A DNA stretch of 16,096 bases from Candidatus Heimdallarchaeota archaeon (lineage in GTDB: Archaea; Asgardarchaeota; Heimdallarchaeia; Hodarchaeales; Hodarchaeaceae): the NCBI GenBank assembly GCA_048881705.1, contig JBHLSH010000083.1:1-16096 (forward strand), given 5' to 3'. Positions 9,262 to 16,096 of the stretch are shown here, one piece after another. The notes under the pieces were generated by a model. The model made no database searches, was not told the DNA's origin, and was given only the letters and a program-made list of their open reading frames with translations. The position numbers and the translations under genes were made by a program. How positions within the stretch are numbered: position 1 is the first letter of the stretch; each line of letters opens with the position of its first letter.

Positions 9262-9653
9262 TTAAAGAAACCTCTATCAATGGAGAAAATAAATCATAAA
9301 AACGTTTTAATCATCGTTTATTAGCGTTAAACCCTATTTTTTTAAACAAGCTCCTTTAATTAAATGCACGATCAAATGCCACGGTACTTATCTTATCCTA
9401 TCGCAGGAGATGTGGTATCGTAGAAAGTAGCGAAAGCGAAACAAGAAGGGTAAAACTGGTTGGAAAATCCGGAAGTTAGATAGCAATTCCAATCCGGTTT
9501 TAGTTCTGATAGCCCAGATGGAAAGTACTTATGGTATACAAGAAAAGCCTTTCTTCAGGCATTAGAACGCAAATATTTAGATTTATTGGATTAAGTTTGC
9601 CATTTACTTGACTATTATTGTTCACATTCTTCTATCTGCAACGAGGTTGTTCA

Positions 9654-11765
9654 ATGACTTCTCACATCCCTGCGCGTTTGAAATATCTGGAACAATTGGC
9701 CAACAATTTACTTTGGGTTTGGCATTCTCCAACCAGGGACTTGTTCAAAAGATTAGACCATCCAACTTGGGTTTCGACTGGCCATAATCCTGTACGTATG
9801 TTGCAATTAATACCCGAGAATAGATTACGATATATTGCGGAAGATCCATCATTCTTAAAACGTTATGACGCTGTTATTCATAGATTCGAACGGGATTTAT
9901 CATTCCAGGATAATTGGTTTAAGCAGACGTACCCTGATCATAATTCTGAACAATTTGCATATATTTCAACTGAGTTTGGCCTCCACCAATCGTTGAACAT
10001 TTATTCAGGGGGATTGGGAGTGTTGTCGGGCGATCACGTAAAAGAGAGCAGCGATCTAGGGATTCCCCTTGTTGCATCAGGATTTGTATATCCTCAGGGC
10101 TATTTCAAGCAGGTTATGCCACGGAATGGATGGCAGCAGGCCCAATACGAGAATATTATTTTCGATCAAACCCCGATAAATCCCGTAACTGAGAATGGAA
10201 AGGATCAACTCCTGGTCGAAATCAATTTTCCAAAGCCAATTTGGCTTCGAATATGGAAGTTGCAAGTCGGCAGAACCCCTCTCATCTTGATGGACACGGA
10301 TATTCCCCAAAATGATCCATGGAATCGGGGGTTATCTTCAAGATTATACGGAGGGGATCAGGAAATGCGCATTCGACAAGAAATTGTCTTGGGGTTTGGA
10401 GCAGTTAGAGTTCTATCCTATTTAGGTTATAATCCTACCCTTTTTCATTTGAACGAAGGACATTCCGCATTCGTTGCCCTTGAACTTCTCCGTCGAGAAA
10501 TTGTAGATGGAGGAAAATCATTTGATGAAGCCAAGAGTCGTGTACGAGAAAGAATAATTTTCACAACTCATACACCAGTCCCCGCAGGGCACGACCAGTT
10601 TGTTTTTGAATTGGTTTCGAAGTATTTCCAAAATTATTGGGAGGATTTAGGTATCAGCCGTGATGAGTTCCTTGCATTAGGCGCATTTGATTGGGATCAA
10701 GGTCATGGATCCCGCTTTAATATGACCGCACTTGGCATAAGGTTTAGTCGTTATCAAAATGCGGTATCAAAGCATAATACTAAAGTGTGTCGTGAGATGT
10801 GGACACAGTTATATTCGTCTCTCGGGAGAAAAGATTACACCCCCATCCAAACCATTACGAATGGGGTTCATTTACCCACATGGGTATGTCGCCCTCTTCA
10901 GAAGCTTTATTCAAAGCATTTGGATAGTTGGCTAACCAACCATGATCAAGAGGGGATATGGAAGTCCATCGATGACATTTCCAGCAAGGAAATTTGGGAA
11001 GCAAGACTCAAGGCAAGAGAAAACATGTTCAGATTCATCAGAGAGCGAGCTAGATGGAAAAGGATGGAGGAAGGAAAGGATTCCCGCCAGACACTGGCAG
11101 CAGGCGCGCTCCTTGATCCAAACACATTGACCGTTGGCTTTGCTAGACGTTTTGCTACCTATAAGCGAGCTGGACTGGTTTTTCAAGACCTTGAACGCCT
11201 AAAAAAGAATCTTCTAGATCCCTACACTCCTATTCAGATCATTTTTGCTGGAAAAGCGCATCCTGCGGACGATCCAGGGAAACAAGTTCTTCAGAATGTT
11301 TATAATCGAGTGGTCGATCCTTCATTCGGTGGTCGGATAGCGTTTATTGAAGATTACGATTTGCAGGTAGCGCAGTATTTAGTTCAAGGTTGTGACATAT
11401 GGCTAAACACACCACGTAGGCCAATGGAAGCTTCAGGAACTTCTGGAATGAAGAGTGGTATCAATGGGGGAATAAATTTCTCAATACTTGACGGTTGGTG
11501 GAAAGAAGCATACGATGGCAGTAACGGCTGGTCTATTGGCGAAGATAAAGATTGGGATGACCCCAATGCCCAGGATGAAAGCGATCTGGTCTCTTTATAT
11601 ACAACCTTGGAAAAAGAAATCCGTCCACTATTCTATCGAAGAAACAACAACGATGTTCCCGAAGACTGGATAGATATAATGCGTAACTCTATTAAAACGA
11701 TCGCGCACTATTTCTCTGCACGTCGGATGATGAAGCAATACGCGAAAATTTATCTTACCAGATGA
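9654..11765 (+). CDS. glgP: Alpha-glucan (glycogen/maltodextrin) phosphorylase, 703 aa
   Basis: YSGGLGVLSGDH, HLNEGH, FTTHTPVPAGHD, ITNGVH, GFARRFATYKR, FAGKAHP and PLP-Lys motif EASGTSGMK. RBS GAGGT at 9643-9647 supports ATG 9654 over 9618. Confidence 0.96.
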   Translation: MTSHIPARLKYLEQLANNLLWVWHSPTRDLFKRLDHPTWVSTGHNPVRMLQLIPENRLRYIAEDPSFLKRYDAVIHRFERDLSFQDNWFKQTYPDHNSEQFAYISTEFGLHQSLNIYSGGLGVLSGDHVKESSDLGIPLVASGFVYPQGYFKQVMPRNGWQQAQYENIIFDQTPINPVTENGKDQLLVEINFPKPIWLRIWKLQVGRTPLILMDTDIPQNDPWNRGLSSRLYGGDQEMRIRQEIVLGFGAVRVLSYLGYNPTLFHLNEGHSAFVALELLRREIVDGGKSFDEAKSRVRERIIFTTHTPVPAGHDQFVFELVSKYFQNYWEDLGISRDEFLALGAFDWDQGHGSRFNMTALGIRFSRYQNAVSKHNTKVCREMWTQLYSSLGRKDYTPIQTITNGVHLPTWVCRPLQKLYSKHLDSWLTNHDQEGIWKSIDDISSKEIWEARLKARENMFRFIRERARWKRMEEGKDSRQTLAAGALLDPNTLTVGFARRFATYKRAGLVFQDLERLKKNLLDPYTPIQIIFAGKAHPADDPGKQVLQNVYNRVVDPSFGGRIAFIEDYDLQVAQYLVQGCDIWLNTPRRPMEASGTSGMKSGINGGINFSILDGWWKEAYDGSNGWSIGEDKDWDDPNAQDESDLVSLYTTLEKEIRPLFYRRNNNDVPEDWIDIMRNSIKTIAHYFSARRMMKQYAKIYLTR

Positions 11766-12480: not shown

Positions 12481-13632
12481 GTGATTTCAGACGACACCGA
12501 CGAACTTTCCTCATTTTATTCAGCTTATTACCGTTTACTCAAGGCTGGTAAGAAAGCCGTAAATTTTATTAATCAATCTCCCCCTCCTTTAATGGAATTT
12601 TGCCAATATTTGTCCAAGGCAAAAGAAGAACAAAATCTTGTCCATATTGTGGGAATGGGACGCTCTGGAAAGGTAGGGATGTTATTAGGGGAGATTTTAA
12701 AGAACATAGGCTTTCGTATAAGTTACTTGGGCAAGAGTTTAGCAAAACCCGTTAGGAAGGATGACGTGGTCATCGGAGTTACCGGTTCGGGCTGGACCCC
12801 TTTCACCTGCAAGTCATTAGATGATTCCATACAACGTGGCGCAAAAATCCTCGTGATGACACGAGATCCCCGTTCTAAAGCTGCACGATTAGCAGACACC
12901 GTCATTGAAATCCCGTATCCCGTTATTGATGGATTCGAAGAAGAAAGCAGTTCAAACCACGCGCCACTCACTCCCATGGGAACCATGTTCGAGATGAACG
13001 CTCTATTGGTAGGAATGGGGATTTTTTCGGGATTAAATGATGATTCTACCATAAAGGGGTTTAACGACGGAGTTAATAGGGTTTTATCTGCTTCTGAATC
13101 CACATTGGCGTTTATACGAGATAATGAAGAAGTTCTCGCCAAATTCATCCGTTTGATTGAAAGATATTCTCATAAACCGCAGAAAAAAGTATACATCTAC
13201 GGTAGCGGCTTGGATGCCATCATCGGGAGTATGACATCGATCAGGTTGATCCATTGTTATGTGAACATAAAATCAAACTACGACTGGCGTTTCAGGGATG
13301 CGGATGACATGCTCATTGCCATCTCGGGATCAGGCAATTCGACTAGTACTCTAGAAAGAGTAGAAAGCGCAAAATCAGCAGAAATGAATGTTATTGGACT
13401 TACTTCATTTCCAGAATCACGATTAGCTCAAAATAGCGATATCTTCATTAAACTGGAGGGCAGAACCGAATCTCGAGCCGTCGAGCTACGTCAAATTTCT
13501 GACCTACGTATACTTTTGCCTTCTTTTGAATATGTAACCGCGATATTCATGGATTCCTGTGTGGCCCAATTAGCTCATGATCTCAAGATTTCGGAATCAG
13601 AGATGCGCAGAGAACACGCGAATATACAGTAA
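12481..13632 (+). CDS. hxlB: 6-phospho-3-hexuloisomerase (PHI) with two tandem SIS domains, 383 aa
   Basis: GMGRSG (aa 58-63), TGSG, PMGTMFE in half 1. RLIH, ISGSG, SFE and C-terminal MRREHANIQ (PHI-type HANLE end) in half 2. Upstream of an HPS-containing gene. GTG start with RBS GAGGGT. Confidence 0.85.
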   Translation: MISDDTDELSSFYSAYYRLLKAGKKAVNFINQSPPPLMEFCQYLSKAKEEQNLVHIVGMGRSGKVGMLLGEILKNIGFRISYLGKSLAKPVRKDDVVIGVTGSGWTPFTCKSLDDSIQRGAKILVMTRDPRSKAARLADTVIEIPYPVIDGFEEESSSNHAPLTPMGTMFEMNALLVGMGIFSGLNDDSTIKGFNDGVNRVLSASESTLAFIRDNEEVLAKFIRLIERYSHKPQKKVYIYGSGLDAIIGSMTSIRLIHCYVNIKSNYDWRFRDADDMLIAISGSGNSTSTLERVESAKSAEMNVIGLTSFPESRLAQNSDIFIKLEGRTESRAVELRQISDLRILLPSFEYVTAIFMDSCVAQLAHDLKISESEMRREHANIQ

Positions 13633-13904: not shown

Positions 13905-16096
13905 GTGACTTATCAAGGAAAACTAATACGAGTCCACCTAAAAGAAAAGAAAATCATAATAGAGCCTTTAAATATGGAATTTGCTCAACATTTCCTTGGA
14001 GGCCGGGGTTTGGGAGTCAAATTGCTATATGACGAACTCTTGCCGGGAATTGAACCTTTAGGCGAGAATAATAAGATAGCCCTGATGACAGGTCCAATGA
14101 CGGGGACAAACTCCATTACATCATCTAGATGGTCTATGGTTTTCAAAAGCCCCCTAACAGAGTACACACTTAACGATACCCATTGTGGGGGTAAATTGGG
14201 AATAGAATTAAAACGAGCTGGATTTGATGGCATTATAATAGAGGGGATCTCAGATGGACCGGTTTATCTAAAGGTAAAAGATGAAGAAGTTACCTTGGAA
14301 GATGCTTCGGAACTCTGGGGAAAACCGATTGATGAAACGGAGGCGATCCTAAGGTTTCGGCACCCTCAGCACTCGATTGCGGCAATTGGGCCTGCCGGGG
14401 AAAATCTAGTCCGATATGCGTGTGTAAAAAATGGACCCCGGACAGCTGGCCGTGGAGGGGTGGGAGCAGTCTGGGGTTCTAAAAAGCTGAAGGCAATCAT
14501 AGTTCATGGTACCAAACCAGTTACTATTGCAAATCCATTTGCCTACAGGCAAGCGAATAAGGAATTTGCTAAGGTCCTTAAAGGGCATCCTGTCACTGGT
14601 ACAGGCATGAGGCGTTATGGGACCTTAATCCTTGCCAACCTGGTTAATAAGCACGGTGCATTACCTGTTAAAAACTTTCAAGCGGGAGTATTTGAGGGTA
14701 TCAGAGAGGTCGCAGGAGAAACCGTTCGAGAATATCTCAAGAAAATTGAACCATGTCGTGCGTGTTCAATAGGCTGTGGACGTGTTAGTAGTTACGAGGG
14801 GGTAGAAACAGAGGGGCCAGAATTTGAAACCGTATGGGCATTCGGGCCTAATTGCCAGATTAGCAACTTAAAGCATATTTTTGAGGCCAATGAGCTCTGC
14901 AACACCCTTGGGTTGGATACAATCTCTACAGGGAACGCCATAGGATGGTACATGGAGTGTGGCGAAAGGGGCCTCGTTTCGAATGCGCCTCAGTTTGGAG
15001 ATGGAGAGAAACTTCTAGCTTTGGTTAGAAAGATTGCGTATCGCGAGGATGAGGGAAACCTATTGGCTGATGGGGTTCGGAAGGCTGCCCAAGAAATAGG
15101 GCACGATTCAGGAGACTTCGCTATACACGTCAAGGGCCTTGAGATGCCCGCGTATGATCCACGGGGGATCAGGGGAATGGCGCTAAGCTATGCTACCTCA
15201 ACAAGCGGGGCAACACACTTAAGGGCGTATACTATTATCCAAGAAGTACTGAGTCTCCCCCATTTTGTCGACCCATTTACAGATGACGGGAAAGCAGAAT
15301 TAGTCCGAAAAATGCAGGACATATTTGCCGTACTGGATTCTGCGGAATTTTGTAAATTTACAACAATGGCTACATTTTCTACGCTGGAATTAGAAATTGA
15401 TTTATTTGCCAGACTGCTGACAACGGCAACTGGTTTTTTTATTGACGTGAAGGAGTTTAAAAAGATAGGAGAACGAATTTATAATCTAGAGCGATTGTTT
15501 AATCTTAGAGAAGGATTAACTAGATTGGATGATTCATTACCTAAACGTTTCCTGGTTGAACCCCTAGATCAGGGCCCCGCCAAGGGTTTGTTAGCTGACA
15601 TTGATGCCCTGCTCTCTGAATATTATCGATTGCGAGGATGGGATGAGCTAGGTGTTCCCTCTGAACGAAAACTAGAGGAACTTTCGCTAAAGCCTCTCCG
15701 AACCGCTGCCAAGCTGCAGGTAGCTTTAGATCTGCGCGATACAGAAGAAGCCATCAAGATTGCCAAAAGAAGCGCATTGGGCGGAGTTGATTGGATTGAA
15801 GCTGGAACTCCTCTAATCAAAGCGGTAGGAATGGGTATAATCACGCAATTAAGGCAGTTATTCCCTCACAAGGTGATTGTAGCTGATCTAAAAACCATGG
15901 ATACGGGATTTCTCGAAACGGAAATGGCCGCTCTGGCTGGGGCGGATATAGTGTGCATCCTGGGAATTGCTCCAGATGAAACGCTTGAAGATGCCGTGGG
16001 TGCTGGAGAGAAGTTTGGCGTTAAGATTTTTGCAGATTTAATTGGAGTAAAAAATCCGATAGAGCGGGCAATTCAACTTGAAAAGATTGGAGTGGA
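13905..16096 (+). CDS. aor-hxlA: Fusion protein: aldehyde:ferredoxin oxidoreductase (W/Mo-bis-pterin AOR family, aa 1-595) + 3-hexulose-6-phosphate synthase (from aa 603; 3'-truncated by the window)
   Basis: Hand translation gives 730 codons with no stop from GTG 13905 (in-frame TAA at 13899). AOR motifs: GGRGLG, GRGGVGAVWGSKKLKA, CxxCxxxC (C284/287/291) plus C483, EGPEFET, LGLDTIS, HVKGLEMPAYDPRG, YYRLRGWD. After linker KPLRTAA, HPS motifs: KLQVALD, IEAGTPLIK, ADLKTMDTG, ADLIGV. Absent from the ORF track because it runs off the window. Confidence 0.92.
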   Translation, partial: MTYQGKLIRVHLKEKKIIIEPLNMEFAQHFLGGRGLGVKLLYDELLPGIEPLGENNKIALMTGPMTGTNSITSSRWSMVFKSPLTEYTLNDTHCGGKLGIELKRAGFDGIIIEGISDGPVYLKVKDEEVTLEDASELWGKPIDETEAILRFRHPQHSIAAIGPAGENLVRYACVKNGPRTAGRGGVGAVWGSKKLKAIIVHGTKPVTIANPFAYRQANKEFAKVLKGHPVTGTGMRRYGTLILANLVNKHGALPVKNFQAGVFEGIREVAGETVREYLKKIEPCRACSIGCGRVSSYEGVETEGPEFETVWAFGPNCQISNLKHIFEANELCNTLGLDTISTGNAIGWYMECGERGLVSNAPQFGDGEKLLALVRKIAYREDEGNLLADGVRKAAQEIGHDSGDFAIHVKGLEMPAYDPRGIRGMALSYATSTSGATHLRAYTIIQEVLSLPHFVDPFTDDGKAELVRKMQDIFAVLDSAEFCKFTTMATFSTLELEIDLFARLLTTATGFFIDVKEFKKIGERIYNLERLFNLREGLTRLDDSLPKRFLVEPLDQGPAKGLLADIDALLSEYYRLRGWDELGVPSERKLEELSLKPLRTAAKLQVALDLRDTEEAIKIAKRSALGGVDWIEAGTPLIKAVGMGIITQLRQLFPHKVIVADLKTMDTGFLETEMAALAGADIVCILGIAPDETLEDAVGAGEKFGVKIFADLIGVKNPIERAIQLEKIGV

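Follow-up and report, generated by a model that had tools for sequence, protein, structure and literature searches.

The 16,096-base stretch of Candidatus Heimdallarchaeota DNA analysed here (the window) is the entire contig C83 of a 3.96-Mb metagenome-assembled genome (MAG; 91% complete, 7.5% contamination). Its last gene joins an aldehyde:ferredoxin oxidoreductase (AOR) in frame to HPS, a 3-hexulose-6-phosphate synthase. The analysis confirmed that this AOR-HPS fusion is real, that it is complete once joined to a second contig of the same assembly (C17), and that it is conserved. From sequence comparison, we consider it probable that this protein of 815 aa has two activities in the reverse ribulose-monophosphate (RuMP) pathway, in which fructose-6-phosphate (F6P) would be converted via D-arabino-3-hexulose-6-phosphate (Hu6P) to ribulose-5-phosphate (Ru5P) and formaldehyde, and the formaldehyde to formate with the production of two reduced ferredoxins. 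Many archaea make their pentoses by running the RuMP pathway in reverse, releasing one formaldehyde per pentose. Methanogens trap this formaldehyde on tetrahydromethanopterin (H4MPT) with a Fae-HPS protein; in archaea lacking H4MPT its fate has, to our knowledge, been left open or loosely assigned to 'an AOR'. A covalent HPS-AOR link would be a specific, testable answer to how formaldehyde is disposed of in the archaeal reverse RuMP pathway.

The reading frame is open from the GTG at 13905 to the contig end, 730 codons without a stop. The last 77 bases of C83 (16020-16096) are identical to C17:51545-51621 on the reverse strand, and once the two contigs were joined, the open reading frame (ORF) came to 815 aa, containing the whole HPS barrel and closed by a stop codon. 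Extension of the contig, which the initial annotation had proposed as the way to the full C-terminus, was thereby achieved. In a genome of the same genus (G070), an 815-aa orthologue with 95% identity is present on a 515-kb contig, where the gene order runs unbroken from the C83 genes through the orthologue to the C17 genes. A truncated gene was ruled out by the C17 overlap that finishes the ORF and by the unbroken G070 locus. The initial annotation had described, from the letters of the window alone, an in-frame fusion without a stop, a 7-residue linker at 15690-15710, all four Fe-S cysteines in the AOR half and intact HPS catalytic motifs. Each of these was borne out: the Pfam borders reproduced the linker exactly, and C284, C287, C291 and C483, together with LQVALD, IEAGTP and DLKTMD, are kept.

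A false read-through at the junction, produced by an assembly chimera or a sequencing error, might be suspected of a contig that stops inside the gene in a MAG with 7.5% contamination, but the chance of such an artefact is negligible. The junction lies ~390 bases inside the contig, in DNA that is ordinary coding sequence, and the synteny of G070 spans the C83/C17 join. The same architecture was found at 80 of 80 independent loci, closed genomes included. Since the junction is read in one frame at all of these loci, which belong to other species, misassembly or a chance open frame is excluded.

These loci came from scanning every prokaryotic species, each represented by a single genome, for a pattern. 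The scan yielded 105 relatives; 80 loci were kept, and at every one a single ORF spans the junction. A check on the taxonomy of chains carrying AFOR_N, AFOR_C and OMPdecase, and on the presence of the fusion in relatives, placed it in more than 80 archaeal species, among Asgard archaea, Methanomethylicia, Bathyarchaeia, Nezhaarchaeota, Brockarchaeota and MAGs labelled as DPANN (labels are those deposited with the MAGs and may be imprecise). The fusion is neither rare nor local; public databases hold it under generic names. When a query spanning the junction (residues 450-730) was run on 400 genomes of the phylum, full-length matches in one frame and without stops were obtained in 12 more genomes of the window's genus, and a thirteenth (G065) gave a partial match cut by a scaffold gap. 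Full junction matches were also obtained in one genome from another family of the class, in one further family, and in three genomes of the genus to which Ca. Harpocratesius repetitus belongs. A form of ~800-900 aa is carried by Methanomethylicia/Verstraetearchaeota, including the complete genome of Ca. Methanosuratincola verstraetei LCB70, by Bathyarchaeia, Hecatellales, Nezhaarchaeota and the Brockarchaeota MAG B48_G17, and by MAGs labelled Hydrothermarchaeota, Undinarchaeota and Micrarchaeota (the Micrarchaeota locus is cut by a contig end). Forms of ~990-1020 aa occur in MAGs labelled Nanohalarchaeota or Aenigmatarchaeota. These longer proteins (P0004, P0021, P0037, P0038 and P0138; loci L124-L134) consist of an AOR, a degenerate HPS-like barrel and an intact HPS barrel, the degenerate barrel having lost LQVALD and AGTP and kept D-x-K-x-x-D. 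Among long proteins with the HPS segment, to which a word-indexed search was confined, ~50 clusters (90% identity) combined AFOR_N, AFOR_C and OMPdecase; where names were given, these were Hodarchaeales, Hodarchaeota, Heimdallarchaeota, Promethearchaeota or Thorarchaeota. Only ~4 fused representatives (P0138, P0139, P0047 and P0150) appeared in a search of 50%-identity representatives, which under-reports the spread of the family.

Two loci of relatives looked broken. In G065 (L056:10273-16730) 6 kb seemed to interrupt the gene. The break proved to be a stretch of N, beyond which lie housekeeping genes (eIF2-gamma, P-type ATPase); a 6-kb insertion in the gene is thereby ruled out, and the break is probably a scaffolding error in a 'single-contig' assembly. 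The G013 orthologue (L053:4692-7156) occupies two overlapping frames of 161 and 681 aa, owing to a frameshift or a sequencing error close to the N-terminus.

The N-terminal half is a bona fide member of the AOR family (PF02730 and PF01314) as judged by domains, residues and fold, and its activity is predicted. AFOR_N was matched with 241 bits (cut-off 29.8) over profile positions 1-199 of 199, and AFOR_C with 457 bits (cut-off 27) over positions 2-385 of 385. In phmmer searches of PDB, the AOR half aligned end to end with Pyrococcus furiosus AOR (1AOR, 523 bits) and scored 505, 476 and 427 bits against the tungsten AORs (W-AORs) 9MQX, 9G7J and 8C0Z, compared with 347 bits against formaldehyde:ferredoxin oxidoreductase (FOR; 1B25) and 210 bits against WOR5. 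Residues C284, C287, C291, C483, E308 and H438 align with 1AOR residues and are invariant in 38 fused homologues. P. furiosus AOR and the W-AORs resemble the AOR half in ~45-50% identity over all 595 residues, in a common three-domain fold (TM-score 0.95), in the same four cysteines and the equivalents of Glu313 and His448, and in a MoaD-like gene that is often adjacent. The fused proteins differ from them in forming a separate clade and in carrying a C-terminal HPS barrel; in contrast with these relatives, no genes for electron-transfer subunits of the AorA/AorC type were found adjacent to the fusion. P. furiosus FOR shares family and fold with the AOR half but is more distant than AOR (36% versus 45% identity in structural alignments). 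The AOR half is therefore not like FOR, whose activity the initial annotation had invoked, and FOR orthology was ruled out both by the scores (347 versus 523 bits) and by the clade of their own that the fused proteins form. The window genome (G000) encodes seven further AOR paralogues, on contigs C84, C109, C21 (two copies), C57, C5 and C22, and its contig C1 carries a short AOR-family fragment with a stop codon.

The C-terminal half was assessed with TIGR03128 (HxlA), whose curated equivalog-domain cut-off is 200 bits. The HPS of the window genome, split over two contigs, scored 133.5 and 90.2 bits; the full-length G070 orthologue scored 211 bits, above the cut-off, and other fused proteins 206-222 bits. 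Against NCBIfam, the partial HPS domain scored 128-134 bits with HxlA, compared with 56-61 for UlaD and 28-33 for pyrF, and PRK07028 was also far above both. A comparison with PDB was run on the HPS half of the full-length G070 orthologue. The best match was HPS-PHI 9LJ9 (213 bits), with M. gastri HPS 3AJX at 150 and 3F4W at 112 bits, whereas 3-keto-L-gulonate-6-phosphate decarboxylase (KGPDC) reached at most 74 and orotidine 5'-phosphate decarboxylase (OMPDC) at most 46 bits. A KGPDC or OMPDC identity of the barrel was ruled out by the NCBIfam and PDB scores favouring HPS, and the earlier assignment to HPS, with KGPDC as its alternative, holds. The motifs of the suprafamily are present: the Asp in LQVALD, the Glu in IEAGTP, D-x-K-x-x-D, the His in LHxGxD and the phosphate-binding GG loops. 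Residues D609, E632, D661, K663, D666, H736, Q742, G770, G771 and G791 are invariant in the 38 fused proteins, and we take their roles in the active site to be those generally known for KGPDC and HPS. We conclude that this half is by sequence a true HPS and not KGPDC, with predicted HPS activity.

Conservation extends to the geometry between the halves. Although the 38 fused proteins are divergent (47-70% identity), neither half varies at any catalytic, cluster-binding or metal-binding residue, and L593 and Q605 are separated by 11 residues in 36 of them. An AlphaFold model built on the 38 homologues had a mean pLDDT of 93 and a pTM of 0.90 for the whole two-module chain, with pLDDT 80-87 in the linker. 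Foldseek matched residues 1 to ~600 with 9MQX_D and 1AOR_A (TM-score (target) 0.95, rmsd 1.2-1.4 Å) and the barrel with HPS structures (TM-score 0.94); no solved chain covering AOR and HPS together was found in this search. The parent enzymes of both halves form dimers.

A tree of the AOR half included 36 fused proteins, 34 of the closest unfused AORs and the seven paralogues of the window genome. All but one of the 36 fused proteins fell in one clade (SH-aLRT 99), separate from the 34 unfused AORs and from six of the seven paralogues; the seventh, a long-branch paralogue, was drawn inside the clade, a position that is unreliable. In the tree of the HPS half, a branch with SH-aLRT 95 divides the fused proteins from HPS-RraA and stand-alone forms, and the same three subclades appear in both trees. 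Together, the single clades, the matching subclades, the invariant residues and the near-constant spacing point to one ancient fusion in which selection has acted on the two activities as well as on their relative geometry. P0150 (826 aa) has an AOR half outside the main fused clade and a linker 12 residues longer. A second AOR-HPS fusion may have arisen here independently, or the protein may simply be a very divergent member.

The genomic context was characterized by searches for HPS, Fae and pentose enzymes. The fusion is the sole match to the HPS model in 10 of 11 in-genus relatives with a full-length fusion, G072 having an extra weak copy. The window genome and G065 each have a single HPS gene, merely split by the contig end and the scaffold gap, respectively, and the fusion is the only HPS in four of the five non-Asgard carriers checked. 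Of ten carriers with counted HPS copies, nine had no HPS besides the fusion. A search of five Asgard carriers, two closed genomes among them, gave no Fae, transaldolase or glucose-6-phosphate dehydrogenase (G6PD), and only a marginal, partial match for transketolase (G310, 26.7 bits). Across the genus G6PD was not found, nor was transketolase, except for one fragment in G072. A candidate PHI, the isomerase that partners HPS, lies 272 bases upstream of the fusion on the same strand and contains tandem SIS domains. Its orthologues (57-93% identity; 353-408 aa across the genus) adjoin the fusion at 11 loci of the genus. In other carriers PHI is elsewhere in the genome; adjacency was not found outside the genus, and the Methanomethylicia neighbours are unrelated genes (fumarase, Alba and a methyltransferase). 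M. hungatei has two separate PHI proteins that are needed together for activity (PMC5241800), and by analogy the tandem-SIS protein may be a fused equivalent of that heteromer.

In the mechanism that we propose, the tandem-SIS PHI would turn F6P into Hu6P, and the C-terminal HPS barrel would cleave Hu6P to Ru5P and formaldehyde. The N-terminal tungsto- or molybdopterin [4Fe-4S] AOR module would then oxidise the formaldehyde to formate, passing two electrons to ferredoxin. This oxidation would detoxify the product and draw the unfavourable retro-aldol cleavage forward, as general knowledge of thermodynamic pull and detoxification would lead one to expect. Low-potential reductant would in this way be gained from pentose synthesis, and the route would be an anaerobic, ferredoxin-linked analogue of the oxidative pentose phosphate pathway. 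Within this scheme, we infer the AOR substrate, the flux direction, the metal, the acceptor of the electrons and a physical channel. Formaldehyde oxidation is the best fit because the fusion is the sole HPS in most carriers, because Fae, transketolase, transaldolase and G6PD were not found in the Asgard carriers checked, because the PHI gene is adjacent in the genus, and because neither active site varies and the linker keeps a fixed length. The initial annotation had proposed that HPS-released formaldehyde passes directly to the tethered oxidoreductase; its domain anatomy holds, and its main idea, that the tethered AOR would oxidise the formaldehyde released by HPS, fits the comparative evidence best.

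Several observations weigh against formaldehyde oxidation by the fusion. The AOR half groups with broad-specificity AORs and not with the enzyme named FOR, and formaldehyde is suggested as its substrate by the fusion partner. The transketolase fragment of G072 lies on a small contig, in a MAG with 9% contamination. In one Nezhaarchaeota carrier, Fae and another HPS occur in addition to the fusion, so that Fae is not strictly replaced by it and a strict either/or distribution of the two was not upheld. Eight genomes of the same genus lack the fusion and have a stand-alone HPS, with no Fae-family matches in one search, so the AOR tether is not obligatory for the lifestyle. Neither the formate dehydrogenase alpha subunit nor formate-tetrahydrofolate (THF) ligase was found in the 91%-complete window MAG; the closed sister genome G067 has both.

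The stand-alone HPS of these eight fusion-less genomes, seen for example in G058 (L137:3963-6981) and G064 (L138:3855-6873), has 247 aa and lies at the orthologous tandem-SIS PHI (57% identity). It is of the methanogen Fae-HPS type (PRK13307 HPS part, 198 bits) and has no Fae domain, and a 374-aa radical-SAM-like gene overlaps its start. One HPS type seems here to have been exchanged for another at a locus that is otherwise conserved.

Three other functional explanations were weighed. The fusion might serve only co-expression, stoichiometry or assembly, with a general AOR half that acts in aldehyde detoxification or amino-acid fermentation (on acetaldehyde and others) and with formaldehyde diffusing freely. 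Such a role would suit the similarity of the AOR half to the broad-specificity P. furiosus enzyme, the seven additional AOR paralogues, the absence of an adjacent PHI outside the genus and the relatives that live with an untethered HPS. We nevertheless regard it as unlikely: the fused AOR halves make up an old clade of their own, which has diverged in step with its HPS partner, and several archaeal phyla have retained the fusion. A linker length fixed in 36 of 38 proteins and a whole-chain pTM of 0.90 are also unexpected of a loose tether. That the barrel takes another sugar phosphate, releasing a different aldehyde or acting in a KGPDC-like decarboxylation, with the AOR half oxidising the product, is very improbable. 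OMPDC, KGPDC and HPS share one active-site scaffold, and specificity in this suprafamily is hard to read from sequence. However, the full-length orthologue scores above the HxlA equivalog-domain cut-off, HPS models and structures score two- to three-fold above KGPDC, the partner PHI is adjacent, and genomes in need of an HPS have none besides the fusion.

The two modules could also work in the opposite direction, the AOR reducing formate to formaldehyde with reduced ferredoxin and the HPS condensing the formaldehyde with Ru5P, for C1 assimilation or for conversion of nucleoside pentose phosphate to hexose phosphate. AOR-family enzymes can reduce acids at low potential, and a tight tether would hold free formaldehyde low while the favourable condensation pulls the unfavourable reduction. 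HPS and PHI are reversible (PMC5241800), and formate metabolism is indicated in relatives by formate-THF ligase in G067 and G134 and by formate dehydrogenase in G067. Against this stands the lack of the enzymes that regenerate the acceptor: neither transketolase nor transaldolase turned up in the five Asgard carriers, the marginal partial G310 match apart, and the only transketolase genus-wide is the G072 fragment. A classical RuMP cycle could not regenerate Ru5P under these conditions, which makes a formate-assimilating cycle unlikely; no other pentose route was seen in the genomes, so that HPS must run to Ru5P at least for biosynthesis. Operation in this direction is improbable, also for pentose-to-hexose conversion, and the route of formate reduction followed by RuMP fixation that the initial annotation had also entertained is unlikely as a cycle. 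An extension of the formaldehyde-oxidation reading is that AOR-HPS and PHI together form an unrecognised anaerobic equivalent of the oxidative pentose phosphate pathway (C6-P to C5-P, formate and two reduced ferredoxins), in which formaldehyde would travel through an intramolecular tunnel from HPS to the tungsten and never be cytoplasmic. We put this forward tentatively, as a possibility that falls short of an even chance; if true, it would settle the fate of formaldehyde in the archaeal reverse RuMP pathway.

The architecture was compared with known HPS fusions. Fae-HPS proteins, such as Mhun1628 of M. hungatei and that of M. barkeri (NF009833 / PRK13307; PMC5241800, Goenrich et al. 2005 cited there), are found in methanogens and other H4MPT users, and the fusion is thought to let Fae capture at once the formaldehyde released from F6P on the way to Ru5P (PMC5241800). 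Like AOR-HPS, in which this role is proposed, they join an HPS barrel to a formaldehyde-consuming module. They differ in the partner, which in AOR-HPS is a 595-aa N-terminal pterin/[4Fe-4S] oxidoreductase and not a 160-aa Fae, in the sink, which would be formate and ferredoxin reduction and not condensation with H4MPT, and in the barrel, which in AOR-HPS belongs to a different HPS subclade. The Fae domain (PF08714) was not found on the fusion chain, in the window genome or in four other carriers. By this comparison, AOR-HPS is a putative functional analogue of Fae-HPS and not a member of NF009833. The HPS-PHI of Thermococcales (9LJ9; NF041755) is among the closest barrels (213 bits), and HPS-RraA proteins of the HPS-MenG/RraA-like type (NF005442; Mhun0647 of M. 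hungatei) are 60-64% identical in the barrel. Both types share the pathway role, in archaea without a pentose phosphate pathway, but have HPS at the N-terminus, and their partners, an isomerase and a domain of unknown role, do not handle formaldehyde. The fusion chain ends after the HPS barrel and has no SIS/PHI domain, PHI being a separate gene (12481-13632), and the protein does not belong to NF041755. The earlier statement that the known HPS fusions are just HPS-PHI and Fae-HPS needs correction, since the HPS-MenG/RraA-like form was already a third (NF005442; PMC5241800). In most other Asgard genomes (loci L031-L042), HPS is fused to a RraA/MenG-like domain in a protein of ~440-470 aa.

No published description of an AOR-HPS fusion was found in the freely searchable full-text literature, in agreement with the initial annotation, which knew of none. 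HPS, PHI and AFOR are listed separately for Asgard ancestors by Eme et al. 2023 (PMC10307638 supplement), who called the reverse RuMP pathway a source of reducing power (PMC10307638). De Anda et al. 2021 treated HPS/PHI and AFOR as separate functions in Brockarchaeota, MAG B48_G17 included (PMC8065059); this MAG carries HPS and AFOR as one protein. In public records the protein is entered as '3-hexulose-6-phosphate synthase', 'orotidine 5'-phosphate decarboxylase' or 'aldehyde:ferredoxin oxidoreductase'. This is a new domain architecture made from two known enzyme families, and apparently an undescribed one. If the proposed mechanism is true, pentose synthesis yields reduced ferredoxin and formate, which bears on models of Asgard syntrophy and on the need for tungsten or molybdenum. 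The presence of the family in the complete Ca. Methanosuratincola verstraetei genome means that it may be reachable experimentally.

Features of the fusion gene and of its neighbours. Positions are those of the window unless another contig is named.
Feature	Position	Strand	Basis or remark
AOR half of the fusion, residues 1-595	13905..15689	+	Pfam, PDB phmmer, Foldseek
AFOR_N, residues 5-203	13917-14513	+	Pfam, E 1e-71
AFOR_C, residues 217-595	14553-15689	+	Pfam, E 7e-137
Fe-S cysteines C284, C287, C291	14754-14777	+	
Fe-S cysteine C483	15351-15353	+	
E308	14826-14828	+	equivalent of P. furiosus AOR Glu313
H438	15216-15218	+	equivalent of P. furiosus AOR His448
Linker KPLRTAA, residues 596-602 (7 residues)	15690..15710	+	between KLEELSL (AOR) and KLQVALD (HPS)
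OMPdecase/HUMPS, residues 603-710			Pfam, E 9e-22
HPS barrel, N-terminal 128 residues (D609, E632, D661-x-K663-x-x-D666)	15711..16096	+	rest on C17, from C17:51544 downwards
77-base terminal overlap with C17	16020..16096		assembly-graph overlap, where the gene continues
Tandem-SIS PHI candidate, 383 aa	12481..13632	+	TIGR03127 HxlB, two stretches, E 3e-41
Alpha-glucan (maltodextrin/glycogen) phosphorylase	9618..11765	+	TIGR02094, 778 bits
MoaD/ThiS-like gene, 105-112 aa	16336-16674 in joined coordinates, on C17	+	overlaps the fusion stop codon; orthologue L043:8920-9237

The most widely conserved neighbour of the fusion is a MoaD/ThiS-like protein (~95 aa, ending in GG), which adjoins it at 36 of the 80 loci, in Asgard and TACK archaea alike; the relatives that flank the fusion end in ...FPP(V/I)AGG. 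This protein is of the sulfur-carrier type of pterin cofactor synthesis, and its recurrence beside the fusion argues for an active pterin enzyme. An alpha-glucan phosphorylase, a possible source of hexose phosphate, is a conserved near neighbour in the genus and is encoded 2-5 genes from the fusion in G070, G074, G071, G067, G072 and G075.

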